A stretch of DNA of 64,000 nucleotides from Candidatus Woesebacteria bacterium GW2011_GWB1_39_10 (GTDB lineage: Bacteria > Patescibacteriota > Microgenomatia > UBA8517), in contig LBVU01000004.1 in the NCBI GenBank assembly GCA_000993205.1, forward strand, positions 208,030 through 272,029, in the 5' to 3' direction. The notes below the pieces were generated by a model. The model saw only the letters and a list, made by a program, of their open reading frames with translations, was not told where the DNA came from and did not search any database. This document shows, piece after piece, positions 1-28,500 of the stretch (position 1 is the stretch's first letter; each line of letters begins with the position of its first letter). Both the position numbers and the translations under genes were made by a program.

Positions 1-1040
1 TCAAACCAAGTACTGTAGATTCTAAATAACGAAATTGACATATATCTGTCCTGAAAAAGTAATGGAACAACAAACGCTATTGCTCCAAGAAAAAATATTA
101 GTCTGGAAAGATCGGGTTTTTTAATGCAAAGAATTACCAAAAATGGCACAATCCAAAGGAGCCACTGAACATGGAATAATGCGAAGGAAAAAATAATCAA
201 AAACATGGAAACCCAATAGTTAAACAGGTTGATCTTTTTGTCAAATAGGGCTACATAGAAGAACAGGAGTGAAAGAGCCAATGTTGCAAAGTCGGATGTA
301 AATATACCGGTGGTAAGCCCCGAAACCAACGCCGATTGAAAAAACGCGCTAGAGATGAAAGGCAAGATTATTATTCCGAAAGTAATTAACGGAGTAACGG
401 AAAGAATAGCCTTCTCTTTTAAATTCCTCCCTGCCAAAAACAAAAATGGTATAAAAAGTAGCGGATATAATTTAAAACCGGAAGCCAGACCCAAAAAAAT
501 CGCTGCAGAAAACAATTTTTGTTTTTTGATCATTAAAAACGACAAGACTGTTAGAATTACAGAAAAGATATCGATATTAGAAAAAACATAAATAATAATT
601 ATTGTAAAAGGGTTGAATAACCAAAAAACAAAAGCCTTCTTCTTCTCCTCTTTATCTTCAAAAAACTTCATCAAAAGAAATGCAATTAGAACATCTAAAA
701 CCAAATACGGGAGTTTTAGTGTCACCAAATACTTAAATATATTTGGGTTCTCAACCGCAGAATATGAACCCGCATCGGCAAGCCAGGAATCAAAACCTTT
801 ACCCAGAACTCCCGACGCCGCCCATTGATATCCACCTACCGTAAAATAAGTTAGTGGGAAATAAACAAAATCATCCTTTAACGTAAGTGATTTTTTGTTA
901 TCTACAAGATAGGTATAAATATTAAATACTCCAGTTTTTAAAAATGAGGCTTGAAAATTGATTGTCTTAATATCCGGGTGAAATAAAAATCCTGCTACCA
1001 AAAGTCTCAAAACAATTGCCAAAATTAGAAGTCTCTTCAT
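1..1040 (-). CDS. polytopic membrane protein, 3' end beyond window start (absent from ORF track because it runs off the edge); paralog of 2677..3921; putative GT-C-type glycosyltransferase
   Basis: Manual minus-strand translation from ATG 1040-1038 (ATGA overlap with TGA stop of the upstream gene) gives an open frame of more than 340 aa, rich in TM helices. The segment LKLPYLVLDVLIAFLLMKFF..WLFNPFTI..FLGLASGFKLYPLLFIPFLF aligns with LKLPYLPFDLGVAALLYKFF..WMFNPINL..FLGLGASFKIFPFLFLVPLAL of 2677..3921. Confidence 0.5.
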   Translation of the reverse strand, partial: MKRLLILAIVLRLLVAGFLFHPDIKTINFQASFLKTGVFNIYTYLVDNKKSLTLKDDFVYFPLTYFTVGGYQWAASGVLGKGFDSWLADAGSYSAVENPNIFKYLVTLKLPYLVLDVLIAFLLMKFFEDKEEKKKAFVFWLFNPFTIIIIYVFSNIDIFSVILTVLSFLMIKKQKLFSAAIFLGLASGFKLYPLLFIPFLFLAGRNLKEKAILSVTPLITFGIIILPFISSAFFQSALVSGLTTGIFTSDFATLALSLLFFYVALFDKKINLFNYWVSMFLIIFSFALFHVQWLLWIVPFLVILCIKKPDLSRLIFFLGAIAFVVPLLFQDRYMSISLFRIYSTWF

Positions 1041-2680
1041 TGTACTTTATATATATTAACAGTATCGTTCTCAAAAATCTTAATCATTGGATATTCTTCC
1101 TCGGCCATAGGCAGTTGATAGATCTTGGGCAAATAAATATAACGTATATTGTTATCTTTCAAAAACTTGCTTGACCACTTTAAGTCTTTTTCATCGAAAA
1201 ACCTGTCGGCATTTTTTATCCTTGATTCATAATCAGTATTAAGGATTATCTGTTGTTCAACATCTTCAATGTAGACACTTTTACCGGAATAGGCGGACAC
1301 ATACGAATTATCTGCGTAAACACTTAATGGATACGGATCTTTAAATTTGCCGCGCAGATCTCTATCAAACGGATGCTTTAAGACAATACCGTCTGTCTGA
1401 GTAGATAGATATTTTAAGGCGGTGTACTCTGAAACCGGCAAATAAGCCGGGGGTTGGGGGTATAGCCAGCTTCGAAACGTAGCAGCCGAGCTAATTGGAG
1501 TAATTAATAAAACTAAAACCACCAGAGAAATTGAAGATTTTTTAAGAGCATTTGCCGCATATAAACCAGAAAAAAACAAAAAATAATAAAAAAACTGAAT
1601 AACGTTCCAAGGATTCCCTTTTTGAACGAAAATGAGCGTCGGGATAATTGAAATTGCCATCAAAGAAAAAATAAAGATATGCAAATCTTCCTTAAAATAA
1701 TTTTTTCTTAATCCCCAAAAACCAACTATCCTAGTTCCCAGGTTTCCTACAAAAAATATCATTAGAGCAATTAGTTCAAAAATAGCATAATTGAGCCATC
1801 TTCCACCCCCAATATAGGCAAATCTTCGTGCAGTAAAATTTGGAATACCTACCCTATCCCCGGCATCGATCATTGTATCGACCAGCCAAAGTGGCTGAAA
1901 TGCGACAAGACCGGCGGCCTCCTTGCTAATTGATAGATATATGGTGATAAATATACCTGCTGAAAAAATAAACACAGGCAGAAGGCTGAAATTTTTGTCG
2001 AAAAATATTTTCTTTAACGTCAAAACAAATAAAGCGCTCAGACATATTGCGCCTGCATACGCTTTAAAACCGACAAGAACCCCGAACGCAATTGATAAAA
2101 TCAAACCTTTTAAAAAGTCCGGTTTTTTTAGATATAAATCTAAAAGAATTACTGAAAAAATTATTATGACCAACGATATTGCATAGGGGGGGTTAAGGTT
2201 CATTGAAACCGGCTGGTTAGCCCAAAATGCGGACTCGCCGCCGATTTGCTGACCTTTGATCAAATTCACAACCCAACCAAAACTGCTTGCAAAATAGGCA
2301 AAAAACACAGCCAAGAGAGCTACTTTCTTATCTTTAAAAAGTAAATTGACCAACTTGTATGTTCCTATTCCAAGTAAAATCGAAAAGACGACCGGAAAAA
2401 ATCTATAAACAAGAAAGTTTGTAGATATTCCCAGGTTGTGTATTAAAGAAACTAAAAGGTCATATAAATAGTGATAGTTATATAATAACTGACCTGCGAA
2501 TCCCGGGTTTTGCGGGGGAACACCTTTACTCAACTGTCCGACAAGGGCTTCGTGCCATACTCCATCCCGAGCAAGCGGGCCGAAGTATCCTACTCCGTAA
2601 TTATAAAGCCACCCGCTTCTAAACATAGAAACGCCTTGAAAAATTACACCCAAGATAGTTAAAACCGTTAAGATAATCAT
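1037..2680 (-). CDS. GT-C-like polytopic membrane protein (YfhO/PTPS-related type) with C-terminal soluble domain
   Basis: 547 aa with about 10 N-terminal TM helices. The N-terminal motif GPLARDGVWHEALVGQLSKG..NPGFAGQLLYNYHYLYDLL is analogous to the D-x-x-H..G..P..FNFYxPLxYY motif of paralogs 3918..8794. About 150 aa of soluble C-terminus follow. Confidence 0.45.
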   Translation of the reverse strand: MIILTVLTILGVIFQGVSMFRSGWLYNYGVGYFGPLARDGVWHEALVGQLSKGVPPQNPGFAGQLLYNYHYLYDLLVSLIHNLGISTNFLVYRFFPVVFSILLGIGTYKLVNLLFKDKKVALLAVFFAYFASSFGWVVNLIKGQQIGGESAFWANQPVSMNLNPPYAISLVIIIFSVILLDLYLKKPDFLKGLILSIAFGVLVGFKAYAGAICLSALFVLTLKKIFFDKNFSLLPVFIFSAGIFITIYLSISKEAAGLVAFQPLWLVDTMIDAGDRVGIPNFTARRFAYIGGGRWLNYAIFELIALMIFFVGNLGTRIVGFWGLRKNYFKEDLHIFIFSLMAISIIPTLIFVQKGNPWNVIQFFYYFLFFSGLYAANALKKSSISLVVLVLLITPISSAATFRSWLYPQPPAYLPVSEYTALKYLSTQTDGIVLKHPFDRDLRGKFKDPYPLSVYADNSYVSAYSGKSVYIEDVEQQIILNTDYESRIKNADRFFDEKDLKWSSKFLKDNNIRYIYLPKIYQLPMAEEEYPMIKIFENDTVNIYKVQ

Positions 2681-3921
2681 GTTTTATCAATCCTTTTGGG
2701 GAAATAATAATAAATAAAATAGAGAGCCACCGAAGCAAACACGGTTTGCAAGATACTTCTCGCAAAGTTTATATCTACATTAATTCCTAAATTTGTCCAA
2801 ATTCCCGGTTGTCCATATAAACCCGGGGATATTGGGGAGAAAAGCCAAACCGACAGACCCGGGTCAAAAAAAGTCACTTGTCCAAGCCAAACGACAAACA
2901 ACGTAATGGTTAGCGGCCAATGGGAAAAACGCGACTTAATTAAATCAATCACTAAAAACGGCGTTAACCACAAAAACCATTGGGGATGGGTATGGGTAAA
3001 TATGAAAAAGGTGAGAATTAATATAAAAAATCTATTCCAAAGATCATCAGTCTTTGCTTTATTAAACAGAAATACTATGTAGCAAAAAAGTATAAAAAGA
3101 GGGAAATAAATTATTGCCTCACCTCCCGAAATCGGAAGAGTGGCATACAGACTTTTGGTGGTTTGACCGGCAAGTAGCGCAGTAGCTCTAAATCCGTGTG
3201 AATTTATGAAAGGCAGGATGGTTACAAGATATGTTAGCGCTCCGATTCCAAGGATTTTAATTCTATCCAACCACTTACTCTTCATCAACGCGAGCGGTAC
3301 AAGAAATAAAAACGGGAATATCTTAAAAGAAGCACCCAATCCCAAAAAAAGAGCCGCAATAAAATACTTTTCCCTCTTGACGGCAAAATAAAGCGTAAGA
3401 ATTGCCAAAAAGGTCGGAATGACATCGAATTGTCCCATCATATATGTTGCGTATAAATTAATAGGATTAAACATCCATATAGTAAATGCTAAAAATTTAT
3501 TTTTGGGATCTTTAAAAAATTTGTAAAGTAGAGCCGCTACTCCCAGGTCAAAAGGCAAGTACGGAAGTTTTAGAACCAGTAGCAAAAAATTTAGTTGAAT
3601 ATTACCCAAAAGTGCTGGCAAATTGAATATGAAATCATGAAGTAAGCCTCTATCGAAAGGAAGCGATAATAAATAGCTTACAGGGCCCAAGAAAAAGTAA
3701 ACCAAGGGCGGATAATTAAAGAGATCGGTCGGATAGATTTTCAAAATCGGATCGGAAGATGGCAGGTTTCTTAAATAATCGTAAAAATTTAGAACATTTC
3801 CTTTGGCAATCACCTCGCCGGCGAAGTAGAACGGTTGGACATCCGAATGGTACGTTGAAAATGCCAGAAAAAACCTGATTAAAATTCCAATAACCAGAAC
3901 CGTGATGATTTTCTTAGTCAT
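2677..3921 (-). CDS. polytopic membrane protein, putative GT-C glycosyltransferase (DUF2029/GT87-like)
   Basis: 414 aa, about 11 TM helices. It is a paralog of the partial gene at 1..1040. Start and stop overlap the neighbouring genes (operon). Confidence 0.45.
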   Translation of the reverse strand: MTKKIITVLVIGILIRFFLAFSTYHSDVQPFYFAGEVIAKGNVLNFYDYLRNLPSSDPILKIYPTDLFNYPPLVYFFLGPVSYLLSLPFDRGLLHDFIFNLPALLGNIQLNFLLLVLKLPYLPFDLGVAALLYKFFKDPKNKFLAFTIWMFNPINLYATYMMGQFDVIPTFLAILTLYFAVKREKYFIAALFLGLGASFKIFPFLFLVPLALMKSKWLDRIKILGIGALTYLVTILPFINSHGFRATALLAGQTTKSLYATLPISGGEAIIYFPLFILFCYIVFLFNKAKTDDLWNRFFILILTFFIFTHTHPQWFLWLTPFLVIDLIKSRFSHWPLTITLFVVWLGQVTFFDPGLSVWLFSPISPGLYGQPGIWTNLGINVDINFARSILQTVFASVALYFIYYYFPKRIDKT

Positions 3922-5489
3922 TTATTCCTTCTAACTAGTATTGTAATGGCACCTAAGACGCTTAGCAAAGAAATTATATCCAATACCTTCCTGAATCTCG
4001 TTTCTTTAAATGCAATTTTCAGTTCGTGTTCCCCTGCCGGAACTTTAAATTCTAGTTGTCCATACGGTTCGCCGGCATAGACGTCAACTTTCTTGCCATC
4101 GACAGTTACAATCCAGCCGGGAAAATAATATTTACTGTAGTCAAAAATAGTTTCCTTTGCATAGTTTACTTTAAAGGTAGCTCCTAAGCCTTGATCGGGC
4201 GAAAGTTTATCCGGACGCATTTGAGTTTTTTGTGGTAAACGCAAATACTCCTCCTGAGTTTTAAGATATTCGGCTGAGGCGGACGGGAACGGAATATATC
4301 TATTTAGATAATATGCATCGGTTCTCCCTAAAAAGTCATGAGGTTTGTAATTTGTAAAGTTAAGCGCAACAGCCGTAAGAACAACTACAATGCCAATGGT
4401 CTTTGCAAGTTTAAATTTGTCGAATGATATTACAAGAACTGAAGTGGCAAACGTGGTCAAACTCAAAAACCTCCAAGGAAATTGAAAGTATGGTAAATAC
4501 GGAATGATTTTCCATAAAAATGTTGATCTAAAATTCATCAGGAATACAGAAACGGCTATGGTAAAAAGCGCCCAATATATAATCGGCTTTCCTTTCCTGA
4601 TAAGAACTACCGTCGCAACAACCAGTAAAACATTTATCGCTCCCATAAAAAAACTCATTCCGTCATGGGGCCCCGGGACTGACGCGCCGTATCCAAAATG
4701 GGGAGTGACTAATTGTTTAAGAGTGGGGAAATGATCGATAAAATTAAAATTTCCCGTACCATACTTCATCAATTTGCTCTCAATGAGCGCCGGGAGCCAA
4801 AAATACAAACTTACTAAAAGACCCAATATAAATCCGTAAATGGATCTGAGTATTCCTTTCCATTGCACCAATGCAAACAATGCCAGAAACGGAATAAACA
4901 TATAAGCCATAATGTCGTGCGATAAGATGAGCCCCGCAACACCCAATGAAAGGAGGCAAATCCATTTAATTGATTTCTCTTTACCGATCTTTGTGATCGA
5001 AAAAGCGATCAATGGAGGAAAAACAAACGCCAATATTTCCCCTATTGCCCCCCTGACATATATATCTGTAGCCCTATACGGGGTATAAACATACAATACG
5101 GCCCCTGCAAGCGCTAAGAATTCATTTGTATACTCTTTTATAAATTTATACATGAAGTACATCGAAAGAGGCACACTCATAAGGAATATTGCTTTAACGC
5201 TGTCGACAAGGGATAAACCTAACTTGTGGAATATTTCTCCGATGTAAAAAGGCAACGGAAAAACAAAATTAAAAAGAGGGTAGCCGAATCCAAAGGAAAG
5301 ATCCGGAACAAACCTGGGGGGAAATTGGCCGAGAGATAGCGACCTATTCATCTCGAATAACCATCCAATATGCAAGTCGTCACTAGCGCCAAAGTATCCC
5401 GGTACAAATAGTGCCCAAACAGCCGGAATTGACAATAACAGAATAATTAGAAATGGATATTTAACTAAAAATTTTTCTACCTTTTGCAT
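3918..5489 (-). CDS. membrane glycosyltransferase-like protein, paralog 1 of tandem triplet (PTPS-related/YfhO-like GT-C family)
   Basis: N-terminal motif PGYFGASDDLHIGWLFEMNRS..GFGYPLFNFVFPLPFYIG is shared with 5461..7113, 7094..8794 and the N-terminal half of 20532..23645. There are 10 or more TM helices, a C-terminal beta-rich periplasmic domain and a terminal TM anchor. Confidence 0.5.
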   Translation of the reverse strand: MQKVEKFLVKYPFLIILLLSIPAVWALFVPGYFGASDDLHIGWLFEMNRSLSLGQFPPRFVPDLSFGFGYPLFNFVFPLPFYIGEIFHKLGLSLVDSVKAIFLMSVPLSMYFMYKFIKEYTNEFLALAGAVLYVYTPYRATDIYVRGAIGEILAFVFPPLIAFSITKIGKEKSIKWICLLSLGVAGLILSHDIMAYMFIPFLALFALVQWKGILRSIYGFILGLLVSLYFWLPALIESKLMKYGTGNFNFIDHFPTLKQLVTPHFGYGASVPGPHDGMSFFMGAINVLLVVATVVLIRKGKPIIYWALFTIAVSVFLMNFRSTFLWKIIPYLPYFQFPWRFLSLTTFATSVLVISFDKFKLAKTIGIVVVLTAVALNFTNYKPHDFLGRTDAYYLNRYIPFPSASAEYLKTQEEYLRLPQKTQMRPDKLSPDQGLGATFKVNYAKETIFDYSKYYFPGWIVTVDGKKVDVYAGEPYGQLEFKVPAGEHELKIAFKETRFRKVLDIISLLSVLGAITILVRRNK

Positions 5490-19766: not shown

Positions 19767-20525
19767 TCAGACTCCATATTTCCCCTGAAGTGCATTTAGA
19801 CGGACCATGAGAAGACCCCTGAAACCCTCGATGGAATCTTTAATAGGATCTACCTTTGTTCCTTCTTTGTGATGCCAATCAACGGGGACTTCCGCAATTT
19901 TATAACCAAGCTTGCGAGCAACATATAAAATTTCCAAATCAAAACCCGCTGTAACGGAGGCACCAACACTTTTGTTCTTCGAATCAAAAATTTTGAGACG
20001 ACTAAAAATCTCTTTTGCGGCATCTTTCGAAAAAGCCTTGAATCCGCATTGCGTATCTTTAAACGGAAGTCTCAAAATCATCAATATTAGGAACGAAAAA
20101 CCCCAAGCCATAACTTTTCGAATTAACGGGGCTCCTTCACGCCCTCTGCGGGAACCAATAACGACATTGTAGTCATTTTCAAACTTTGGCAAGACCTTGG
20201 TAATTTGATCTATAGGTGTAGCTTGGTCTGTATCTGTAAAAAGAATTATTTCTCCCTTAGATTTCAAAACTCCCGCTATAACCGTCCCGGCCTTGCCCCT
20301 ATGGGGTTCCTTAAGAACAAAAAAATTTTTACGCAACTGAGCAAACTCTTCCGCAATTTTTGCCGTATTGTCAGTCGAGCCATCATCAACGAATATAATC
20401 TCCCATGAATATTTTTGTCTAGTCAAATAATCGTAAACTGAATCGAGGACTCCAGTACGCAAATTGTATGCTTCATTAAAAGCAGGGATAACTACCGAGA
20501 GAAAAATTTTGTTCATATGAATCAT
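19767..20525 (-). CDS. polyprenol-phosphate glycosyltransferase (GT2, Dpm1/GtrB-like)
   Basis: SVVIPAFNEAYNL..IIFVDDGSTDNT..FTDTDQ. Confidence 0.7.
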   Translation of the reverse strand: MIHMNKIFLSVVIPAFNEAYNLRTGVLDSVYDYLTRQKYSWEIIFVDDGSTDNTAKIAEEFAQLRKNFFVLKEPHRGKAGTVIAGVLKSKGEIILFTDTDQATPIDQITKVLPKFENDYNVVIGSRRGREGAPLIRKVMAWGFSFLILMILRLPFKDTQCGFKAFSKDAAKEIFSRLKIFDSKNKSVGASVTAGFDLEILYVARKLGYKIAEVPVDWHHKEGTKVDPIKDSIEGFRGLLMVRLNALQGKYGV

Positions 20526-20531: not shown

Positions 20532-23500
20532 TTACTTAGACTTTTCCGGCCAATTATTTTTCAGCCATACCGGTGGGACGTAGATCCCTAGTTGTCCAAA
20601 TGAAAAAGTTGTAACCCTCTTTTGGCGGGGAATTACAAATTCTATCAAAGGGTCATTTGCGCTTCCTGAATGACCAACTTTGTGAAATTTAAGTAAATAC
20701 CTAAATCCGGTATCTTCATTAAAAGGAACATCGAACGAGATATTAAAAGGACTGGAATTCTTGGTTATTTCCTTCAACAAACCAACAGCCCGATCTTTTT
20801 CTCTTAAACTCAGGGAAACATCTCTTAATAGAGGAAGTGAGCAAACTCCAAAATAAAGCATTATTAAAATTAACGCAAAAAGCCCGAAACGCTTCAAATT
20901 TTTAAGTAGAATACTTATCAAAACAAGAAACGGAACAAGCAAATAATTAAAATAATATTCCGACGGGCTTTTTATTAATATGTAAAACAAAGGAAGACTC
21001 GCTACCCAGACACTACCCAGACCAAATAAAACTCTTCTCTGAACAATATCTTTGATTCTCGTAGCCGTTACAAAAAGACCGACAGAAACAAATAAATAAA
21101 TTGTAATTGCCAGTAATACTGAAGGCGAACCACCCACCATAAAAGAAGAAACTCTTTCCCAGACCATCAGCACTCTACCAACCCCTTCTCCCACACTTTT
21201 GGTAAATCCTGCTATCAAATTTAAATTTAAAAAATTATGCCTTAAATCAAAAAACAGAATCGGCACGAAAGGTATGACTGATCCCAAAATAAGAAGGATG
21301 AAATGTTTATACTTTTTACACTTGAATATGTCTATTAGCAATGGGGCGAACATGGGGGCAATAAACAAAAATTGAAGATGGGAACTCAATCCCATTCCAA
21401 ATATTATTCCAGCCAAGAAAATATATTTTGCTTTTATTTTTTTAAGATAAAGATAAATTAAATAAATCAAAGAGATAAATAAAAGAGGAACCACTACCGG
21501 ATTCCAAGCAATGGTGTCGACTGAAACGCTTAGTGGATTTACCGCCCAAAGAGCAAGGAAAATTAAAGCCATCTTTTTATCAAAAACTCGGGATAGAACC
21601 AGATAGCTCACTCCGAAAAATAAAGTCGACCAGAAAATTATAAATACGTTAGTAGCTATTGGATTCAAACCAGTCAAAAGATAAAAAGGTGTAAGGATAT
21701 AAAAGAAATATGGGGGTAGAAAAAACCCACTTGGCCCCTGAACCCTTGGACCCAAGAGAGTCAATTTCCCAGCAAGAATATTTGACACTGTTACAGCGTC
21801 TCTTTCCTGATCCCAACCAAATCCAAGTCGCCCGGGCAGATTGTAGCTTCTAAAAAAAATATATAATGTAAATACTGTTATTGCTAATAAGAAGGATATC
21901 AATTTCTTCCTGTTTTTATTTATTCCGGTTAAATAAATTATCAAAATAATTAACCAAATTAAGAAAAAGGTTAATGCTAAATAATTGAAAATTTTTTCAA
22001 TTCTACTTTGCCCTACTTTCCAAGATACTAGATTCTCCCCATTTCTGGTTTTGTCTGTATTAAAACAAACTAACCCACCGCAATCTGTATAATCTGTACT
22101 CTTACCATTTAATGAAACTGTGTGTATGTCCGAAAAATATCCTAAACCAATAATAATTTTGTTTCCCTTAATTTTATTTTTATCAATGAGGAACTTTACC
22201 GACCCGAAAGTGTTATCCCTCTCTACAATCCTGGAACTGAGATCTTCATTATTGTTGGTAGAAATGACCGGGGTAGAAAACCAGCAAGCTTTGACCGCAT
22301 TCGGACTTATAACATCATCCCCTAAGGTGGTTGTTGAATACCTATGCTGATGAAGTTTCTCAAAATCATCGTATTTGTAAAGATCCTCTACAGAAATAGG
22401 TTGGGGTAACATAAAATTTCTTGTACCAATAACCGTTAAAAAACTGACACCGATAAAAATAATTAAATAGACATATTTGGATTTGATTTTTGCTAACATA
22501 AATGAAAAAAGAGAACTTGTTGTAAAAATACCTACCCCAAGGAGCCTCCACGAGAATTGAATTTCCTGAAGCGGTCTAATCTTTTCCCAAAGGGGAATAG
22601 ATATTGGAAGTATTAAATAAATTGTAAAAAGCGAGCCAAGAAAGAAAAAAATGATCCAAACATTACCTTCAATAAAATCCCAAAATTTCGATTTGTTTCT
22701 AATAAAAAAGTAGACCTGACATACAAAAAAGATGCCAGCAATGCCAATTATTAACCACTGCGCATACCCAAGCATAAAACTCATTCCATCATTCACAGTT
22801 CCCAAAGATGAATAAAAATATTCCCAATTAGATTTGAGAAGTTGTCCAAATGTCGGAAAATGTTCACGCCACTGAATAAAATTTAAACCAATCTGAGTGA
22901 ATTTTTGCTCCGTCAAGGCCGGACCAATAAAAAAAGATCCCATTCCAAAAGAGGCCAAAAAAGAAAATGCAATCCAGATAACTTTTTGTAAATTAAATTT
23001 GTGGAGCCGGAGTTTAATAATTAAATAGACAAGGATGATCGGCATTAAAAACATTGCCGCAAAATTGTGAGATATAGTAAGAACCGCCCCCATCAAACTC
23101 GCCAAAAACGCATATACCATAAACCTTTTGCCGTTTGAGTTAAAACACAAAGCATAAAAAAATAAAACGATTGGCAACACTGCATAAGCCAGATATTCAG
23201 GACTACCCCTTACAAAAATTAAGGAAAACCTATATGGCGCGTATAAATATGTGAGAGCTCCGCCAATGGCTGCCAGTTCCTTATTTGTTTCTTCTTTGAT
23301 CCAGAAATAAAAAAATAATGTGCCCAAAAGGAGTGATAGGAAATTAATTATTTTGAGTGTAAAAATTACATCTTTTGTAAACGGGTAAACAGCAACGGAA
23401 AGATAATAAATTAACGGATAGAAAAAATTATAAATCGGCGCGCCGCAGAAATAATTGAGACTTCCGGCCCACCTTAAAGGAAATTGACCTTCTTTAGCAG

Positions 23501-23645
23501 TTTGAATTACGTCAAAAATACGGGCGATGTGATGATCCCCGTCGTGAGTACTGAAAACATTATATTTAAAAATACCTTTCCCTGCCCAAATAACAGCGCC
23601 AACTAATAATGCAAAAATCAGTATTTGTATAAATTTTTTTTTCAT
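20532..23645 (-). CDS. 1037-aa fusion of two GT-C membrane glycosyltransferase-like modules (N-terminal PTPS-related/YfhO-like, C-terminal ArnT/GT39-like)
   Basis: The N-terminal THDGDHHIARIFDVIQTAKEGQFPLRW..GAPIYNFFYPLIYYLS resembles the triplet family. The C-terminal half carries GFGWDQERDAVTVSNIL, resembling the WFDQGRDALVIW motif of 23642..25150. An A9 tract follows the ATG. Confidence 0.5.
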   Translation of the reverse strand: MKKKFIQILIFALLVGAVIWAGKGIFKYNVFSTHDGDHHIARIFDVIQTAKEGQFPLRWAGSLNYFCGAPIYNFFYPLIYYLSVAVYPFTKDVIFTLKIINFLSLLLGTLFFYFWIKEETNKELAAIGGALTYLYAPYRFSLIFVRGSPEYLAYAVLPIVLFFYALCFNSNGKRFMVYAFLASLMGAVLTISHNFAAMFLMPIILVYLIIKLRLHKFNLQKVIWIAFSFLASFGMGSFFIGPALTEQKFTQIGLNFIQWREHFPTFGQLLKSNWEYFYSSLGTVNDGMSFMLGYAQWLIIGIAGIFFVCQVYFFIRNKSKFWDFIEGNVWIIFFFLGSLFTIYLILPISIPLWEKIRPLQEIQFSWRLLGVGIFTTSSLFSFMLAKIKSKYVYLIIFIGVSFLTVIGTRNFMLPQPISVEDLYKYDDFEKLHQHRYSTTTLGDDVISPNAVKACWFSTPVISTNNNEDLSSRIVERDNTFGSVKFLIDKNKIKGNKIIIGLGYFSDIHTVSLNGKSTDYTDCGGLVCFNTDKTRNGENLVSWKVGQSRIEKIFNYLALTFFLIWLIILIIYLTGINKNRKKLISFLLAITVFTLYIFFRSYNLPGRLGFGWDQERDAVTVSNILAGKLTLLGPRVQGPSGFFLPPYFFYILTPFYLLTGLNPIATNVFIIFWSTLFFGVSYLVLSRVFDKKMALIFLALWAVNPLSVSVDTIAWNPVVVPLLFISLIYLIYLYLKKIKAKYIFLAGIIFGMGLSSHLQFLFIAPMFAPLLIDIFKCKKYKHFILLILGSVIPFVPILFFDLRHNFLNLNLIAGFTKSVGEGVGRVLMVWERVSSFMVGGSPSVLLAITIYLFVSVGLFVTATRIKDIVQRRVLFGLGSVWVASLPLFYILIKSPSEYYFNYLLVPFLVLISILLKNLKRFGLFALILIMLYFGVCSLPLLRDVSLSLREKDRAVGLLKEITKNSSPFNISFDVPFNEDTGFRYLLKFHKVGHSGSANDPLIEFVIPRQKRVTTFSFGQLGIYVPPVWLKNNWPEKSK

Positions 23646-25150
23646 ATTCCAGATATCCTATCTCTTTCCTGAACCACAATACCGCCGAATCTTTGCTCTT
23701 TTACAACCCTGCCAATACTCTTTTGTCTGTCCAACCAAGCCGTAAGTCGCTCGGGATGAGCCGAATCAACCTCGTACAAAGTATATAGTAAAGGTGTTTG
23801 ATTTTCAGTAAATTGGCCACTTGCCCCGCGAAGCCTTGGCGTAGTGGGGAGCCATTTGAATAAATAGTCATATGCATAGGGTATGACGGGCGGCACGTAT
23901 ACATCAATATTAAAGTTTCTATCGTCGGCGTTGTTATAAACCCACTCTATTACCTTTTCCTGATCACTCAAAATTATTACACTATTAATATTGGTAGATC
24001 TTTCTGTTAATCTTGGTAAGAGAATTGAAAGATTTGCATTTAAAAATAAATAAATAAAATACAATACGAAAATCTTTCCTGCTGTAAATTTCCATATATC
24101 CCCCAAAACTATTGCGAACAATAAAATAAATATCAAATAATATCCGGTAAAATAATAATCATATAAAACGGCATTATTGCCCTGATAAAAATATAGTCCG
24201 ATAATCGGAGAGATTAGAATTAAAATCAGAAGCGAAATTTTTTTGTTTTTTAAATATTTTGGGGTGGAAACCAAAAACCATGTAGCGATTATGCCCAACA
24301 TAATTTTTTCTCTTCCCCCTCTGGAATCAAATATTTTTTTTGTAAAAACATCATAATAAAAAATAGTCCTTTCTACTAAAAACTTTTTTGTCGGAACGGT
24401 AAAACTCTTCTCGGATACAAATGATTGATAAATATTCGTCCTTAAAATTCTACTGTGTTTAAAATCAAAAATTACCAAAGGAGCAAAAGTGATAATAAAC
24501 AGCAATATTGATAATAATAAATTTTTTAAATCCGGCCAATTTTTCTTTTGCCAGATGGCAAAAAATAATAATACAGGGGAATAAAACAACTCTCCGGATG
24601 AACCAAAATTAAATAGCGACAAACCAAAACAAAAAGAGATAATTGGCCAACCCCATTTTTTTCCCTCTATAACTTTAAACATTCCAAGGATCATCACAAG
24701 CGACAAAAGCATCATTGGCGTGGGATTAGACAGCCATCGAGATGCATCGACAATGTAAAATGAGAATGCCGCAATTGTGGTTGCCAAAAGTCCGGTTGAT
24801 TTTCCTTGAATTTTGTAACCCAAATAGTAAATTACTCCCAGAGCGGCAATCGTCGTAAATATCAGAAAAATCGAAGGATAAACTGGATTCCCGCGTCCTA
24901 TCCAGTAAAATGGAGTAATCAACCAATAATACCAGGGACCTCTAAAAATTCCGGCAAGGCCTGTTGTCGGCCCTATTAAAAAAAATTTTCCGTTATGTAA
25001 AAGATCCCAAATTACTAACGCATCACGCCCCTGATCGAACCAAAAGCCTAAAAGTTCGTTTATCCTATATAATCGGAGAAATGCGCCTAATCCCAAAATT
25101 AAAACTAGAAGATAGTTGAATACCAATGAAGATTTAATCTTTTTTCGCAT
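23642..25150 (-). CDS. ArnT/PMT-type (GT39-like) GT-C membrane glycosyltransferase
   Basis: WFDQGRDALVIWDLL motif after TM1, with 11 or more TM helices. Confidence 0.55.
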   Translation of the reverse strand: MRKKIKSSLVFNYLLVLILGLGAFLRLYRINELLGFWFDQGRDALVIWDLLHNGKFFLIGPTTGLAGIFRGPWYYWLITPFYWIGRGNPVYPSIFLIFTTIAALGVIYYLGYKIQGKSTGLLATTIAAFSFYIVDASRWLSNPTPMMLLSLVMILGMFKVIEGKKWGWPIISFCFGLSLFNFGSSGELFYSPVLLFFAIWQKKNWPDLKNLLLSILLFIITFAPLVIFDFKHSRILRTNIYQSFVSEKSFTVPTKKFLVERTIFYYDVFTKKIFDSRGGREKIMLGIIATWFLVSTPKYLKNKKISLLILILISPIIGLYFYQGNNAVLYDYYFTGYYLIFILLFAIVLGDIWKFTAGKIFVLYFIYLFLNANLSILLPRLTERSTNINSVIILSDQEKVIEWVYNNADDRNFNIDVYVPPVIPYAYDYLFKWLPTTPRLRGASGQFTENQTPLLYTLYEVDSAHPERLTAWLDRQKSIGRVVKEQRFGGIVVQERDRISGI

Positions 25151-26120
25151 ATTTTCTGGCAGTCTCCAAAACTTTAATTACAGCCTGGTCATATGGCATA
25201 TAAAGACGTGCAGCCGACGCTGACTTGTGTCCCCCTCCGCCTAATTTCTCTGCGATTTTCGAAACATCGAAATCATTTCTCGACCTAAAACTAACTGAGC
25301 AGAAGTTATCGAACTGTTCGAGAACAAAACCGAAATCCGTATTTTCAATGGATTGGATAAACGATCCTGCTATATAACTTTTTGCATCCCTGCTTCCGGG
25401 ATAATTTTTTGTGAGATCTTTAGGAACAGCCACCCAAGCGAACCTTGCGTCTTCCTCAACGACAACTTTAGTTAACATTTCTCCCATCAAATGTATTTCA
25501 TCAATAGGACGCGACATGTAAAGATTAAAAAGAATGTTCCTTCTGTCTGCTCCATTTTTGACGAGAGTGTCTGCCATTGAAAATGCCGATTCTCCGATAA
25601 TGTCTGTCTGAAAAGACATTGTGTCCGCGATTATACCCGTCAATAGTGATGTGGCAAGATCTGTAGTTAATTCCAGTTTCCAATCCGAAAATATTTTAAA
25701 CAAAAGAGCGCAACACGAACCGGTTTTTTCATCGACCAGATTAATATCGCCTTCCTTTGTGTTTGTATAATGGTGATCTATCACCACTTTTCGTATTTTG
25801 GAAGACAAAATGTTGTCTTTTCCGGTTGTCTGGTTCCAATTGCCGGAATCGACTATCACAAAAGTGTCATATTGAGAAAAATCAAAATCGTCAAAATTTA
25901 CTACTTTTATTGATTTCGAATTTGGTAAAAATTTACAATTATCGGGAATCTCGTCGGGAGAAATAATAGTGACATCGTCTTTTCCCAGCTCTTTCAATGC
26001 AAGGGACATTGAGGTTGCGCTACCAATACTGTCCGGATCGGGACTTCTATGACAATTAACCAAAATTTTGTTGGCTTTTTTAATTTCCTCTAAAATATTT
26101 TTACTTTCTTTGTAATTCAT
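25134..26120 (-). CDS. nrnA: DHH-family phosphoesterase (NrnA-like oligoribonuclease/pAp phosphatase)
   Basis: DHH motif VVIDHHYTN and DHHA1 GGGGHKSASAA. Confidence 0.7.
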   Translation of the reverse strand: MNYKESKNILEEIKKANKILVNCHRSPDPDSIGSATSMSLALKELGKDDVTIISPDEIPDNCKFLPNSKSIKVVNFDDFDFSQYDTFVIVDSGNWNQTTGKDNILSSKIRKVVIDHHYTNTKEGDINLVDEKTGSCCALLFKIFSDWKLELTTDLATSLLTGIIADTMSFQTDIIGESAFSMADTLVKNGADRRNILFNLYMSRPIDEIHLMGEMLTKVVVEEDARFAWVAVPKDLTKNYPGSRDAKSYIAGSFIQSIENTDFGFVLEQFDNFCSVSFRSRNDFDVSKIAEKLGGGGHKSASAARLYMPYDQAVIKVLETARKYAKKD

Positions 26121-27736
26121 TCTACGTTTACGTGACCAAGTTTATAAAGCGTTCCCCCCCAGACCTCCCATCTATCCACTATTTTAGTCCATCCGAACCT
26201 GGTAATCCAGGCGGAAGGACTATGTGTCGGATCGCACTTAGATTCTTCAAACTCACAGACAACAAAGAGCTGATCTGTTTGTGTAAATTCGGAGGTAGAA
26301 GGGTCGGTGTCGACCACATTGGCCCCCCAAATAATCAAAAAGTAGAGATAAACACTTCGATCGTCAAAATCTGATATCGCAGCTAAATTAAATTTGGCCC
26401 CACCCGCCTTCTCCTGTATAACTTTTGCCACAGATATCGCCCTAGGCATTTGATATGTAGGGTGTACAAACGGAGGATCGTTTTGAAAACTAACAAAGAC
26501 AATAAAACCAATAGTCAAAGAAAGCAGTACTTTAGCTATCAAGTTTTTATTATTTAAAATTTTTTGAGCAAAAGTTCCTAATAATAAAAACGGCGCCGGA
26601 AACAAAAAACCAAGGTAATGATCATAAATCTGACCTTTATAATAGGCTGTTCCAATAAGACCTACTGTAATCCATAAAGATAAAAGGCCGTAAGCGTCTG
26701 TAAAAAGGTGTTTTTTATAAATCCAGACTAAAAATATTATTGAGACCAATACCGCCAAAATTCCCAAATACATATTTTTGCCCATGGGCAAATTTGTAAA
26801 AACCATAAGAGTTGTTGCGCCAATTTTTGATAAATAGGCTAAAAGCGGGAGGCCAACATCACGACTGGAAGTAAAAAATATTTTTATTGCATTATAATTT
26901 TGCCAATTATGACGGATATCAAAGATGAGAAGTGGTGACATTAGCAGAGCGAAGAGCGAAAAAGCTAAGAATGAAGAGCGGACAAATATCGCTTTAACAA
27001 GTTTGTCATTTTTAATTTTGAATAACGTTAATAACCAAAAAACAAAAAGAGTTGGGGCAAGGAAAAGACCTAGATAGTGCGACTGGAGAACAAAGGCGTA
27101 GGAAATCCCCAATGTTATCAGCCAACCTCCCACTCCGCGCGAGGCTCCGCGGGATTCGTATACTTTCCATATGGAATATATAGAAAGTAACGAAAAAAAG
27201 GGCATTATATTTGGATTCCAAGAAGATCTTGAAAATGTTATTACAGTCGGTGAAATTGCATAAAGCCCAGCTGCCACCAACGCACCTACGTTCAGAGAGA
27301 CTTGAATGCCTCCTGTAGTTTTAACCGGAAACCACTCCCGCGTGATAAACCAAACAAAAAAAACTGTTACAACGCCTAATAGCGCAATTTGAACTGCCGG
27401 TCCAACCGGTGAAAAGTTGGCAAGAAGTAAAGCCGGGGCCATCATATAGTAATAAAGCGGCCCCAAATACATATTTCCAACCGATGTGCCAGGTCCAATT
27501 AGAGGTGGGTGCAGCTCGGTGATAAATCTTCTAACTATAAGCACGTCCCGCCCTTCATCACTAAGAAACGTCATATAATCAGAAATTCTATACAATCTCA
27601 TGAATGCACCGACTAATAGAATTAATAATAAAATCAAAAATTCTTTTTTATTCAACAAAATCCACGATCGAATTTTAGAAACTGTTGACTGTTGACTGTT
27701 GACTGTTGACTGTTCGATCATTTGAGTTTTCTCCAA
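26117..27736 (-). CDS. ArnT/PMT-type (GT39-like) GT-C membrane glycosyltransferase; likely ATG start at 27721 followed immediately by a heptanucleotide repeat
   Basis: FLSDEGRDVLIVRRF motif with multiple TM helices. The ORF-track start at 27736 is a TTG codon. Confidence 0.55.
   Translation of the reverse strand: MEKTQMIEQSTVNSQQSTVSKIRSWILLNKKEFLILLLILLVGAFMRLYRISDYMTFLSDEGRDVLIVRRFITELHPPLIGPGTSVGNMYLGPLYYYMMAPALLLANFSPVGPAVQIALLGVVTVFFVWFITREWFPVKTTGGIQVSLNVGALVAAGLYAISPTVITFSRSSWNPNIMPFFSLLSIYSIWKVYESRGASRGVGGWLITLGISYAFVLQSHYLGLFLAPTLFVFWLLTLFKIKNDKLVKAIFVRSSFLAFSLFALLMSPLLIFDIRHNWQNYNAIKIFFTSSRDVGLPLLAYLSKIGATTLMVFTNLPMGKNMYLGILAVLVSIIFLVWIYKKHLFTDAYGLLSLWITVGLIGTAYYKGQIYDHYLGFLFPAPFLLLGTFAQKILNNKNLIAKVLLSLTIGFIVFVSFQNDPPFVHPTYQMPRAISVAKVIQEKAGGAKFNLAAISDFDDRSVYLYFLIIWGANVVDTDPSTSEFTQTDQLFVVCEFEESKCDPTHSPSAWITRFGWTKIVDRWEVWGGTLYKLGHVNVE
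27681..27715. repeat. heptanucleotide tandem repeat (ACTGTTG)x4 plus an imperfect fifth unit, i.e. (CAGTCAA)n on the coding strand, at codons 4-13 of gene 26117..27736
   Basis: Read directly: actgttgactgttgactgttgactgttgactgttc. Confidence 0.9.
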
Positions 27737-28428
27737 AGTCTAAAAAGATCTGTAAAACTTTTGATTATAACATCTATATTTCTTCCGGTTCCCTCTCCTT
27801 TAGTTCTCGGATAATGGGTGACAGGAATTTCCTCAATTTTAAATCCCGCTTTTTTGGCCTTGATCAGAAGTTCGCTGGAAATAAAAGCCCCGCGTTCACT
27901 TTCCAATTTTGAAATTTTGTCTAACACTTTTTTGGAAATCAATTTAAAACCACAATCAATATCGCGTACCGTAAGACCAAATAACAAATAAACCAAAAGC
28001 TCCCACAGTCTACTGGTAATTTTTTTTCCAAAATTTACTTTTCGTGATGTGTAATAACCTATGACTAGGTCTGCATTCGTGTTTTTCTGTTTTTCGATAA
28101 AATTTACGATTTCGGTAAAATCAAACTGACCATCAGAGTCAGTAAACGCAATCCATGAGAATCTTGAATTATAAAAACCGGATGCGAGTGCCGCCCCATA
28201 TCCTCTATTTTTTTCATTATCTATCAGTCGTACATTTTTATCGGATTTTGAAAATTCGAGAGCAACTTCCCGAGTTGAATCGGTTGAGCCGTCATTAACT
28301 ATCAGAAGTTCCCATTTTTCGGAGACAGATTTGAGTACTTCTGTTGTTTTAACAATAACCGGCCTTATATTTGATTCTTCATTGTAAGTTGGTAGAAAAA
28401 CCGATATTTCCTGAATTAGTTTAGCCAC
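27718..28428 (-). CDS. polyprenol-phosphate glycosyltransferase (GT2, Dpm1-like)
   Basis: SVFLPTYNEESNI..LIVNDGSTDST..FTDSDGQ. Confidence 0.7.
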   Translation of the reverse strand: MAKLIQEISVFLPTYNEESNIRPVIVKTTEVLKSVSEKWELLIVNDGSTDSTREVALEFSKSDKNVRLIDNEKNRGYGAALASGFYNSRFSWIAFTDSDGQFDFTEIVNFIEKQKNTNADLVIGYYTSRKVNFGKKITSRLWELLVYLLFGLTVRDIDCGFKLISKKVLDKISKLESERGAFISSELLIKAKKAGFKIEEIPVTHYPRTKGEGTGRNIDVIIKSFTDLFRLWRKLK

Positions 28429-28437
28429 ATAAGTAGT

Positions 28438-28500
28438 CTATATCAGATTCAAGAAAACTGCGAGCTACAGCTCGCATGTGAATTAAACCTGATATATCCT
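28438..28500. promoter_or_regulatory. nested palindrome in divergent promoter region: TATATCAG..GCGAGCTACAGCTCGC..CTGATATA
   Basis: Perfect 7+2+7 palindrome at 28460-28475, flanked by an 8-bp inverted repeat. It lies between divergently transcribed 27718..28428(-) and 28537..29697(+). Confidence 0.4.

Follow-up and report, generated by a model that had tools for sequence, protein, structure and literature searches.

The 64,000-nucleotide stretch analyzed here (the window), from a Candidatus Woesebacteria (Patescibacteria/CPR) chromosome, probably carries a core locus for envelope-glycan assembly that works through polyprenyl-phosphate-linked intermediates. Its first 29.7 kb encode 11 GT-C proteins with 12 GT-C modules. 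Nine of the proteins (A and C through J) pass the curated cut-offs of the Pfam families GT87, PMT/PMT_2, or YfhO/PTPS_related, in keeping with a preliminary description that counted at least nine GT-C membrane glycosyltransferases and whose open reading frames we recovered exactly in position and strand; K was added through its orthologs and B through an AlphaFold2 (AF2) model and Foldseek. The assignments were computed from family, fold, paralogy, synteny, and conserved candidate catalytic residues, and we infer mechanism from family membership and gene order.

1..1040, minus strand: A, GT87-like GT-C, C-terminus cut; Pfam GT87 (31 bits), PIG-U, PIG-M
1037..2680, minus strand: B, GT-C-fold family without a Pfam model; OST/DPY19/Aft-like predicted fold
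2677..3921, minus strand: C, GT87/PIG-M-like GT-C by Pfam; CP066686 ortholog 89%
3918..5489, minus strand: D, YfhO/PTPS-related-type GT-C, paralog 1; PMT_2 30 bits, PTPS_related below cut-off; ortholog 84%
5461..7113, minus strand: E, YfhO/PTPS-related-type GT-C, paralog 2; PTPS_related 62 bits; ortholog 89%
7094..8794, minus strand: F, YfhO/PTPS-related-type GT-C, paralog 3; YfhO 34 bits; ortholog 87%
16349..17887, minus strand: G, GT39/PMT-like GT-C; PMT_2 46 bits, PMT 34 bits; ortholog 90%
20532..21920, minus strand: H C-module (aa 576-1037), PMT_2/ArnT-like GT-C; PMT_2 32.6 bits (aa 644-797)
21921..23645, minus strand: H N-module (aa 1-575), YfhO/PTPS-related-type GT-C; PTPS_related 27.6 bits (aa 72-421)
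23642..25150, minus strand: I, PMT_2-like GT-C, FDQGRD loop; ortholog 87%
26117..27736, minus strand: J, PMT-like GT-C, PMT 26 bits, SDEGRD loop; ortholog 85%
28537..29697, plus strand: K, probable GT-C, divergently transcribed, kept in all relatives

When HMM searches were checked for non-glycosyltransferase families, every assignable membrane protein among these fell into a GT-C family, and a simple hydropathy scan (no dedicated predictor) placed a loop of 60-80 aa after TM1 in all candidates and showed that D, E, F, and the H N-module end in a return helix. A and C, described earlier as DUF2029-like paralogs, are GT87 matches sharing 32% identity, and the CP066686 ortholog of A is 389 aa long (85% identity). 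Four GT39-like proteins had been credited with a D-E/Q-x-R-D loop, which is present in the H C-module, I, and J, but loop 1 of G holds only a DE motif (ADEA). Among five proteins called YfhO/PTPS-related, the assignment stands for D, which carries the loop-1 motif common to the group, for E and F, and for the H N-module, but not for B. K is a probable GT-C that the description missed: its PMT_2 match is sub-threshold (E 0.0016), three of four orthologs match that family (best E 7e-7), and it resembles the NCBIfam "cell surface glycopolymer formation protein" family below cut-off (E 1.4e-8).

For B, searches returned no BLAST, Pfam, or NCBIfam match, the STT3 Pfam model included, and hhalign gave a probability of only 3.9% against the H family, which rules out membership in the YfhO/PTPS-related group. 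Its AF2 model (pLDDT 85.8, pTM 0.87) nevertheless finds STT3/AglB/PglB as best Foldseek matches (E 6e-9), followed by DPY19, AftD, AftA, and ArnT, and by this predicted structure B is a GT-C with an oligosaccharyltransferase/DPY19-like fold. The WWDYG motif of oligosaccharyltransferases (OST) is absent from B, whose family numbers 1716 relatives at the 50%-identity cluster level. B-family genes overlap the end of the Wzx gene in three loci (L004, L009, and L010) and form a fusion with it in L008; the two lie 12 kb apart in the window and in its closest relative.

The 1037-aa fusion of both GT-C types in H, as originally described, is real and conserved. Full-length H occurs in >60 protein clusters and ~24 species genomes, almost all of which carry Woesebacteria, Shapirobacteria, or another Patescibacteria name in their titles, and we found no description of a double GT-C fusion in the literature searched. 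The N half is 25-30% identical to D/E/F and the C half 27-30% identical to I and J. Invariant columns number 52 in the N-module, with H34-D35 and four Cys, and 26 in the C-module, with W611-D612-x-x-R615-D616; the loop-1 Asp is invariant in both. Hydropathy and AF2 secondary structure give the N-module a periplasmic beta-rich domain before its return helix, and the intermodule linker is short and basic. The high-probability Foldseek matches of the AF2 model (pLDDT 89.2; pTM 0.85, the sole measure bearing on how the modules pack) are all GT-C structures, namely, STT3/PglB/AglB, ArnT, Pmt4, ALG3/9/12, Emb, Aft, PimE, and DPY19, and the C-module aligns with ArnT at a TM-score of 0.54, normalized to target. 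We propose that H joins two GT-C modules, both catalytically competent, in a covalent pseudo-heterodimer. The last N-module helix would bring the chain back to the cytoplasm and the linker would connect it to TM1 of the C-module, so that both catalytic loops would face outward. Such a protein would probably carry out two consecutive or coupled transfers with donor from the GT2 that always directly follows it.

Donor synthases, cytoplasmic enzymes, and other genes accompany the GT-Cs, as follows.

8752..9585 and 9587..10492, minus strand: two cytoplasmic GT2s; Glycos_transf_2, 94 and 89 bits
10560..11213, minus strand: SAM-dependent methyltransferase; Methyltransf_11, 82 bits
11210..12268, minus strand: GT4 (GT-B fold) glycosyltransferase; Glycos_transf_1, 94 bits
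12241..12948 (weak match), 12945..13886, and 13888..14787, minus strand: three GT2s by Pfam; order kept in L001
14868..16349, minus strand: Wzx-type (MOP) lipid-linked oligosaccharide flippase; Polysacc_synt_3, 180 bits
17996..18571, minus strand: soluble conserved protein, probable start at an internal Met (~154 aa)
18550..19746, plus strand: MFS transporter; MFS_1, 84 bits; kept in the clusters of close relatives
19767..20525, minus strand: polyprenyl-phosphate sugar synthase-like GT2; nearest solved relatives GtrB, DPMS, ArnC
25134..26120, minus strand: DHH/DHHA1 phosphoesterase (NrnA-like) inside the operon; Pfam, NCBIfam
27718..28428, minus strand: polyprenyl-phosphate sugar synthase-like GT2; ArnC (E 4e-19), then GtrB, DPMS; NCBIfam
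33641..34795, minus strand: DPMS-type polyprenyl-phosphate glycosyl synthase; Pfam GT2 plus C-terminal GtrA_DPMS_TM
35489..39806, minus strand: dTDP-L-rhamnose genes rmlD, rmlC, rmlB, rmlA; Pfam; TIGR01181, 383 bits
41081..42085, minus strand: NAD-dependent sugar epimerase/dehydratase; Epimerase, 177 bits

Pfam bears out the five further GT2s, one GT4, Wzx-type flippase, and methyltransferase of the preliminary description, and its three Dpm1-like polyprenol-phosphate GT2s have ArnC, GtrB (5EKP), and Pyrococcus furiosus DPMS (5MLZ) as nearest solved relatives. Their NCBIfam top matches are PgfS, ArnC, Dol-P-hexose transferase, and PpgS (PgfS and ArnC for the GT2 downstream of H), and the 384-aa protein at 33641-34795 matches 5MLZ over its full length (E 2e-41). 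It holds the sole GtrA domain, there being no stand-alone GtrA-type flippase. The GT-C assignments by HMM and fold, together with GT2s that are closest to polyprenyl-phosphate sugar synthases and sit beside GT-C genes in every relative examined, support lipid-linked extracytoplasmic glycosylation as a reading of family membership and gene order.

A near-continuous minus-strand series of 28 kb had been described. The remaining genes do lie on the minus strand up to 28428, but the MFS gene interrupts them and the cluster extends on both sides, being cut by the left edge of the window within A and reaching to the right, ~40 kb in, up to the DPMS-type GT2 and rmlABCD. Neighboring genes overlap, as in translational coupling (the GT2 at 27718-28428 overlaps the start of J). 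The MFS gene has an equivalent position in L001 and L003, and the phosphoesterase keeps its place in L001, L003, L006, and L007; both are absent from L004. The 17996-18571 protein has no Pfam or NCBIfam match, and L001 carries a 186-aa gene at the matching position. The rml neighborhood is also matched in L001; RmlB is 641 aa long, its C-terminal half without a recognized family. DHH phosphoesterase, MFS, and trmD are unrelated genes among the glycosylation genes, and the window also holds two Y1-transposase-like genes, a secreted protein (42513-43307) that has a C-terminal anchor and a long linker rich in Pro/Thr, and an FG-GAP protein with a Ser/Thr/Pro-rich tail.

In the pathway that we propose, RmlABCD and the epimerase would supply nucleotide sugars, and the five GT2s, the GT4, and the methyltransferase would assemble a lipid-carried oligosaccharide on the cytoplasmic side. 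The scanned window ORFs include no initiating phosphoglycosyl transferase, Wzy, chain-length regulator, or LCP ligase catalytic domain, so the pathway as drawn is incomplete within the window, and initiation would occur elsewhere in the genome or through a GtrB-like GT2 acting on polyprenyl monophosphate, as proposed for lactococcal pellicle polysaccharide. Wzx would flip this lipid-linked product across the membrane to its outer side, where B may transfer or polymerize it, a role to which the overlap or fusion of B-family genes with Wzx at the four more distant loci points. The three ArnC/GtrB/DPMS-like GT2s would make polyprenyl-P-monosaccharide donors, with which ~10 further GT-C modules (GT39/PMT_2-like, YfhO/PTPS-related-like, and GT87-like) would attach single sugars on the outer side, each presumably with its own linkage or acceptor specificity. 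Candidate final acceptors are a surface or S-layer protein, a membrane-anchored lipoglycan, or a wall-linked polysaccharide. Published analogs include three- and four-component GT2/flippase/GT-C systems and the lactococcal Wzx plus GT-C pellicle pathway (PMC10821137, PMC8035078, PMC5836110).

Comparison with relatives bears on whether this is one conserved machinery at all. In CP066686 (a 1.08-Mb chromosome-level MAG assembly) the genes have 1:1 orthologs at 75-90% identity in unchanged order, and the core order is kept in CP055308 (a 0.80-Mb complete genome), where H is only 37-38% identical. A strain-variable surface-antigen island, with recent GT-C duplications for phage or host evasion, would fit the tandem paralogs, the transposase-like genes, and slight differences in gene content (CP066686 has additional GT-Cs of 375 and 774 aa, the window has the FG-GAP insertion). 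D, E, and F, however, are only 30-38% identical to one another (E and F 38%) against 84-89% for their CP066686 orthologs, and the triplication noted earlier is an array of ancient paralogs. GC is flat across the cluster (0.35-0.39), only slightly under the flanking housekeeping genes (0.39-0.43). Orthology and synteny largely refute the island, which we consider very improbable, and indicate core envelope machinery. Several independent three-component decoration systems beside an unrelated Wzx-dependent polysaccharide locus, co-located only through a compact genome and conserved gene order, are an unlikely account. There are two constant GT2/GT-C pairs (the GT2 at 27718-28428 directly before J, and H directly before the GT2 at 19767-20525) plus a separate DPMS-type gene, and interspersed unrelated genes and a plus-strand gene break the series; but block order persists over deep divergence, gene overlaps suggest coupling, and GT-C density is far beyond that expected from unrelated systems.

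Two other readings concern the acceptor. Protein glycosylation, a special case of the envelope-glycan pathway with protein as acceptor, is possible but doubtful: after lipid assembly and flipping, Alg-like GT-Cs would extend the glycan outside and OST-like B would transfer it en bloc, while PMT-like G, J, I, and the H C-module would O-glycosylate Ser/Thr/Pro-rich surface proteins. G and J both score above the cut-off of the PMT (protein O-mannosyltransferase) model, B finds its best structural matches in oligosaccharyltransferases and in DPY19, a protein C-mannosyltransferase, and the 42513-43307 linker and FG-GAP tail resemble the Pro/Thr- or Ser/Thr/Pro-rich regions that streptococcal GT-C enzymes glycosylate (PMC12041528). 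Against this, B lacks WWDYG and an STT3 match, PMT_2-type enzymes such as ArnT also act on lipids and polysaccharides, and the FG-GAP gene is not kept at the matching position in relatives. A lipoglycan anchored in the membrane, or a polysaccharide of the wall, made in the manner of mycobacterial LM/LAM/arabinogalactan, with many GT-Cs extending and branching a polymer outside the membrane from few polyprenyl-P-sugar donors, is likewise possible but doubtful. GT87 proteins (the PimE family) A and C, GT39-like, and other GT-Cs adjoin three donor synthases, PimE, Emb, AftA, and AftD are among the Foldseek matches, and rml genes adjoin the cluster, as in rhamnose-containing wall polysaccharide loci (PMC10821137); yet a phosphatidylinositol mannosyltransferase set (the single GT4 has no assigned role), decaprenyl-phosphoarabinose genes, and an LCP ligase catalytic domain are all missing from the window.

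We favor the broader envelope-glycan pathway. This groundwater Candidatus Woesebacteria has a tiny genome and gives ~30 kb of it to membrane sugar-transferring enzymes (~46 kb in a complete relative), a set that probably builds an elaborate extracellular sugar coat.

The window encodes 11 GT-C proteins, comprising 12 modules, between position 1 and 29.7 kb. The preliminary description had proposed at least nine GT-C membrane glycosyltransferases, with HMM annotation as a check; every ORF coordinate it gave was recovered in our ORF list, and nine membrane proteins exceed the curated Pfam cut-offs for GT-C families. The total rises to 11 because these nine are joined by B, a GT-C by its fold, and by K. 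Structural comparison covered H and B, and the remaining nine proteins were placed by Pfam. We refer to the proteins by letter as follows.

A, 1-1040, minus strand: GT87/PIG-M (GT87 31.2 bits against a cut-off of 25)
B, 1037-2680, minus strand: member of a GT-C-fold family without a Pfam model
C, 2677-3921, minus strand: GT87/PIG-M (GT87 29.7 bits against a cut-off of 25)
D, 3918-5489, minus strand: PMT_2 above the cut-off, PTPS_related under it
E, 5461-7113, minus strand: PTPS_related (62 bits)
F, 7094-8794, minus strand: YfhO (34 bits)
G, 16349-17887, minus strand: PMT_2 and PMT (PF02366, 34.5 bits); loop motif ADEA
H, 20532-23645, minus strand: PTPS_related at aa 72-421 (27.6 bits, cut-off 26.4) and PMT_2 at aa 644-797
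I, 23642-25150, minus strand: PMT_2
J, 26117-27736, minus strand: PMT (26.2 bits); loop motif SDEGRD
K, 28537-29697, plus strand: further probable GT-C; PMT_2 under threshold

PMT_2 is matched by three of the four K orthologues (best E 7e-7). In each of the 11 proteins, and in each module of the 1037-aa protein H (H-N, aa 1-575; H-C, aa 576-1037), a simple Kyte-Doolittle hydropathy scan placed a first extracytoplasmic loop of 55-80 aa after TM1. Acidic residues in this loop are invariant at D35 of H-N, D612/D616 of H-C and D39 of B (alignments of 64 sequences for H and 50 for B), and single-sequence alignments show a loop-1 D or DE in D, E, F, G, I, J, A, and C. The high-probability Foldseek matches of the H and B models to the PDB are all GT-C enzymes. 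G and J combine a PMT domain with a DE motif in loop 1, and I and H-C match PMT_2 alone. Four GT39-like proteins with a D-E/Q-x-R-D loop had been described; their placement in the PMT/PMT_2 families stands, but the motif is limited to H-C, I, and J, with ADEA in its place in G. The PMT_2-type proteins resemble ArnT at the level of fold and PMT_2 only, and the window holds no Arn genes beyond an ArnC-like GT2 and no LPS genes, so that we do not identify them as ArnT (GT83).

Several of these proteins are paralogues of one another. In an all-against-all BLASTP comparison D, E, and F were 30-38% identical, with D at 30-32% to the other two despite its subthreshold PTPS_related score, H-N was 25-30% identical to these three, and H-C 27-30% identical to I and J. 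The two paralogues noted at the left edge, A and C, both belong to GT87 and share 32% identity. D, E, and F had been presented as a tandem triplication, and paralogues they are, but the triplication is ancient, since orthologues in a relative are 84-89% identical compared with the 30-38% between paralogues.

The GT-C genes are accompanied by three DPMS/GtrB/ArnC-like GT2s and by nucleotide-sugar genes, some of which lie to the right of the 28 kb originally assigned to the cluster; that extent was too small, since the cluster also takes in the third, fourth, and fifth of the following features.

27718-28428: GT2; PDB phmmer match to ArnC (4e-19)
19767-20525: GT2; PDB phmmer matches to GtrB (1e-12) and DPMS (4e-12)
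33641-34795: DPMS-type GT2, 384 aa; PDB phmmer match to full-length P. furiosus DPMS including its transmembrane domain (E 2e-41)
35489-39806: rmlD/C/B/A, dTDP-rhamnose genes
41081-42085: epimerase

The Dpm1-like character suggested for the three GT2s is borne out by their closest solved structures, ArnC, GtrB, and the P. furiosus dolichol-phosphate-mannose synthase. Their top-ranked NCBIfam models (PgfS, ArnC, Dol-P-hexose transferase, and PpgS) all score under the equivalog cut-offs and so assign no sugar specificity. Pfam likewise recovered the described cytoplasmic set, namely five GT2s, of which one match is weak, a single GT4, a single SAM methyltransferase, and a flippase of the Wzx type. 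The ORFs scanned across the window include no phosphoglycosyl transferase (PF00953/PF02397), Wzy_C, Wzz, or LCP catalytic domain; of a classical Wzx/Wzy-dependent pathway the window thus holds Wzx, and the rest may lie elsewhere in the genome. RmlB (36994-38919, minus strand) consists of a dTDP-glucose 4,6-dehydratase (aa 1-323) fused to a C-terminal half of ~310 aa without a Pfam match. The minus-strand gene at 56426-56947 encodes a membrane protein of the VTT/DedA family (PF09335, 69 bits). Members of this family have been linked to the recycling of polyprenyl phosphate across the membrane, which any cell with many GT-C reactions would need.

Protein H had been described as an unusual fusion of both GT-C types, with structure prediction suggested as a check. 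Both modules exceed their Pfam cut-offs, and the fusion is conserved: full-length relatives of ~1000-1070 aa with 37-77% identity form >60 clusters at 90% identity and occur in ~24 species-representative genomes titled Woesebacteria, Shapirobacteria, Microgenomatus, or Patescibacteria. Full-length H homologues on contigs of a few third-party MAGs (L012, L015, L016, L021, L023, and L036) come under titles that name Alpha- or Gammaproteobacteria or Candidatus Methanoperedens; these contigs are probably mislabelled or misbinned, because their H sequences are closest to Patescibacteria proteins. In a 64-sequence alignment H-N averages 55% identity to the window protein with 52 invariant columns and H-C 47% with 26. 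Among the invariant positions are H34-D35 and W611-D612-x-x-R615-D616 of the first loops, as well as four cysteines (positions 67, 454, 522, and 527). Profile searches of PDB sequences that started from the alignments of the H and B families found no relatives, and comparison at the level of fold was therefore needed. The AlphaFold2 model of H (pLDDT 89.2, pTM 0.85) gave high-probability Foldseek matches to STT3/PglB/AglB, ArnT (TM-score 0.54, normalised to the target), Pmt4, ALG3/9/12, Emb, Aft, PimE, and DPY19; these matches apply to the whole model, with the modules not told apart.

Hydropathy and the AlphaFold2 model agree that H-N ends, as do D, E, and F, in a beta-rich extracytoplasmic domain and a single helix back to the cytoplasm, and a short basic linker (TGIxKNKKNL) joins it to TM1 of H-C. 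Because of this return helix and cytoplasmic linker the fusion would be topologically permissible, with both catalytic loops outside. Homo- or heterodimeric complexes (Pmt1-Pmt2, Pmt4, and EmbA-EmbB) are among the structural matches, and since several matches are themselves dimers we read H as a covalent pseudo-heterodimer, a model in which the packing between modules is judged from the pTM. Dimeric GT-Cs (Pmt1-Pmt2, the Pmt4 homodimer, EmbA-EmbB, and EmbC2) similarly place two GT-C protomers side by side in the membrane, whereas the protomers of H belong to different GT-C families and share one polypeptide with a short cytoplasmic linker. The modules are not joined everywhere: an H-N orthologue (61% identical) stands alone in two relatives (L006 and L007), and in a third (L003) a single frame change in the linker divides the H gene in two, either a real gene fission or an assembly error. 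The 461-aa gene that follows the GT2 in L006 and L007 was considered as a relocated H-C, a proposal we reject, as it is 26% identical to H-C and no closer to it than I or J are.

The preliminary description had counted B among five YfhO/PTPS-related-type proteins. That assignment fits D, E, F, and H-N and fails for B, which does not have their loop-1 motif and returned no BLAST, Pfam, or NCBIfam match; hhalign against the H family gave a probability of 3.9%, with the alignment falling on the PMT_2-like module. None of 50 B-family members matches any relevant Pfam model, STT3 included, even at E<=1. The AlphaFold2 model of B, built from the 50-sequence alignment (pLDDT 85.8, pTM 0.87), resembles the oligosaccharyltransferases STT3, AglB, and PglB (down to E 6e-9), then DPY19, AftD, AftA, and ArnT, and its C-terminal domain is weakly similar to the AglB globular domain. 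This would invite placement among the true oligosaccharyltransferases (GT66), but none of the 50 sequences has the WWDYG motif or even WW[DE], and the similarity is one of fold alone. We therefore regard B as a GT-C by fold and not as a member of the oligosaccharyltransferase family.

An exhaustive profile search found 1716 representatives of the B family at 50% identity, 895 of them with E<=1e-30. Many are 1000-1160 aa long, a length that raised the possibility of more double GT-C fusions; their N-terminal part is instead a signal anchor and a ~450-aa soluble domain, unlike the window GT-Cs and without a Pfam match. B-family proteins from other Patescibacteria with a large N-terminal extracytoplasmic domain that has no Pfam match are the following.

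L008, 1868-6787
L009, 6818-10294
L010, 3151-6225

The B-family gene overlaps the end of the Wzx gene in L004, L009, and L010, and in L008 the two are fused in one 1639-aa ORF, so that coupling is seen in all four of the more distant loci examined. On the basis of these overlaps and the fusion we propose that B may act on the Wzx-flipped glycan, a proposal that is weaker for this genome because B lies 12 kb from Wzx both in the window and in the closest relative.

H and B have homologues in MAGs of Candidatus Woesebacteria, Shapirobacteria, and other Patescibacteria, and among named relatives Woesebacteria GW2011_GWA2_40_7 is the nearest (95% identity over a partial protein). The 1.08-Mb Woesebacteria chromosome-level assembly CP066686 has a single orthologue of each of A to K in the same order, at 75-90% identity, and two additional GT-Cs (375 aa and a 774-aa YfhO). 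Its block runs past the position of the window's left edge with a 584-aa H-N paralogue, a 634-aa B paralogue, and three PMT/PMT_2 genes, giving 18 GT-C genes in ~46 kb, or ~4% of the genome. Even in the 0.80-Mb complete genome CP055308, where H is 37-38% identical, the core order is kept (K, then GT2-J-I-H-GT2-G-Wzx-(B family)-GT2s-GT4). In every locus examined the GT2 orthologue of 19767-20525 directly follows H or H-N, and that of 27718-28428 directly precedes J. On orthology and synteny we reject a recent duplication or a variable island, and the locus is core machinery. GC content across the cluster is flat (0.35-0.39), and Rfam and tRNA scans found no rRNA, tRNA, or Rfam elements in the window.

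Other genes lie in or near the cluster. A DHH/DHHA1 (NrnA-like) phosphoesterase (25134-26120, minus strand) sits between J and I with overlapping ends, a position kept in L001, L003, L006, and L007 and not in L004. Inserted between K and the DPMS-type GT2 is a gene (29705-32308, minus strand) for an 867-aa surface protein that has FG-GAP repeats and a tail rich in Ser, Thr, and Pro; the three relatives examined do not have it at that position. Diverged Y1 (IS200-like) transposase-domain proteins are encoded at 32493-33173 (plus strand, 226 aa) and 47792-48433 (minus strand, 213 aa); the first of these and the FG-GAP gene occupy the site of a small zf-ChsH2/OB protein in relatives. The segment 49263-52896 (minus strand), with GC up to ~0.52 against ~0.38-0.43 around it, may be foreign DNA. 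It has three ORFs without Pfam matches, for a 266-aa polytopic membrane protein, a 306-aa protein resembling a lipoprotein (LSACG), and a 655-aa Cys-rich protein that has a lipoprotein-like signal (LACGS) and a C-terminal anchor. A second higher-GC region (~0.50; 62144-63901, minus strand) encodes a 274-aa vWA-domain protein and a 307-aa protein without a Pfam match.

Our in silico results comprise family and fold assignments, paralogy, synteny, conserved candidate catalytic residues, and gene coupling. From the roles of these families elsewhere we infer a pathway in which nucleotide sugars, including dTDP-rhamnose, would be supplied, an oligosaccharide built up on a polyprenyl carrier in the cytoplasm, and the lipid-linked glycan flipped by Wzx. 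B would then transfer or polymerise the flipped glycan, and the other GT-Cs would add sugars stepwise outside, fed, by analogy, with polyprenyl-phosphate-linked monosaccharides from the three DPMS/GtrB/ArnC-like enzymes. A plausible candidate acceptor for O-glycosylation adjoins the cluster (42513-43307, minus strand), a 264-aa secreted protein that has a signal peptide, a ~50-aa Pro/Thr-rich linker, a C-terminal membrane anchor, and no Pfam match.

Elements of this scheme recur in several known systems. Mycobacterial and corynebacterial glycan assembly (Ppm1, PimE/GT87, Mpt, Emb, Aft, and Pmt) serves many GT-Cs from few polyprenyl-P-sugar donors, as the window locus would, likewise has GT87 and GT39 members, and supplies the structural matches PimE, Emb, AftA, and AftD. 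The mycobacterial counterparts are scattered over a much larger chromosome, whereas the genes here form one contiguous block (~4% of a 1-Mb genome) without arabinose-donor genes, and the kinship is at the superfamily level only. The eukaryotic/archaeal LLO pathway (DPM1/ALG5, ALG3/9/12, and STT3/AglB) would share flipping, GT-C extension from Pren-P-sugars, and en bloc transfer; B has its best structural matches in STT3/AglB/PglB and one GT2 is a full-length DPMS homologue, but B shows neither the WWDYG motif nor a match to an STT3 HMM, and a sequon or protein acceptor would be hypothetical here.

By analogy, the closest published logic is that of the lactococcal pellicle, with the three- and four-component systems also close (PMC8035078, PMC5836110). 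In the lactococcal pathway undecaprenyl monophosphate is primed by a GtrB-like enzyme and the glycan is then lengthened by cytoplasmic glycosyltransferases. After export through a Wzx-like flippase it is polymerised and ligated by GT-C enzymes, in a branch that runs without a phosphoglycosyl transferase (PMC10821137). Compared with the lactococcal rhamnose-rich cell-wall polysaccharide/PSP pathway (WpsA/B, WpsC-F, the Wzx-like WpsG, and the GT-Cs WpsH/I/J), the window locus has no ABC-transporter rhamnan branch, many more GT-Cs, and a Wzx-coupled GT-C (the B family) without detectable sequence relation to any Pfam family. In the three- and four-component systems (GtrA/GtrB/GtrV; CsbB/GtcA/YfhO of Bacillus and Listeria; GacI/J/K/L of Streptococcus pyogenes) a cytoplasmic GT2 makes a polyprenyl-P-monosaccharide that a GT-C uses outside (PMC8035078, PMC5836110, PMC10821137), as would be the case here, and GT2 and GT-C genes are similarly adjacent, with YfhO/PTPS-related and PMT_2-type GT-Cs present. 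The window locus differs in its 12 GT-C modules for three putative donor synthases, its two-module fusion, its CPR host, and the absence from the window of a stand-alone GtrA flippase and of teichoic acid genes.

A more far-reaching reading, which we consider improbable as a whole, would join these elements. In it, the Woesebacteria/Microgenomatia surface glycan would be made by a pathway like that of eukaryotic/archaeal N-glycans, from cytoplasmic assembly through Wzx flipping and GT-C extension from polyprenyl-P-sugars to en bloc transfer. That transfer would fall to B, as a previously unrecognised, Pfam-less OST-like family (~1,700 clusters) coupled to Wzx physically and genetically, and H would become the first example of a covalent hetero-dimeric GT-C, channelling an intermediate between its two active sites.

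All components of the locus belong to known superfamilies, and its overall logic is already known. The literature searched appears not to describe a GT-C set of this scale and contiguity in a ~1-Mb genome, the conserved heterologous double GT-C fusion, or the Pfam-less, Wzx-coupled, OST-like GT-C family. That literature held no paper on fused GT-C enzymes and no relevant one on GT-C expansions in CPR bacteria, with CPR genome papers making passing mention only of multiple Dpm1-like and GT87 genes (Saccharibacteria and Peregrinibacteria). CPR/Patescibacteria, whose genomes measure ~1 Mb, are believed to live attached to other cells, and their surface chemistry has, to our knowledge, hardly been described. 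The H fusion is a natural construct for the study of GT-C cooperation. The B family may provide the transferase or polymerase that is missing from Wzx pathways without Wzy, and a family model would allow the annotation of thousands of "hypothetical proteins." That ~4% of the CP066686 genome goes to a conserved locus speaks for an elaborate surface glycoconjugate across the lineage, and the genes of the locus are those with which to test this.
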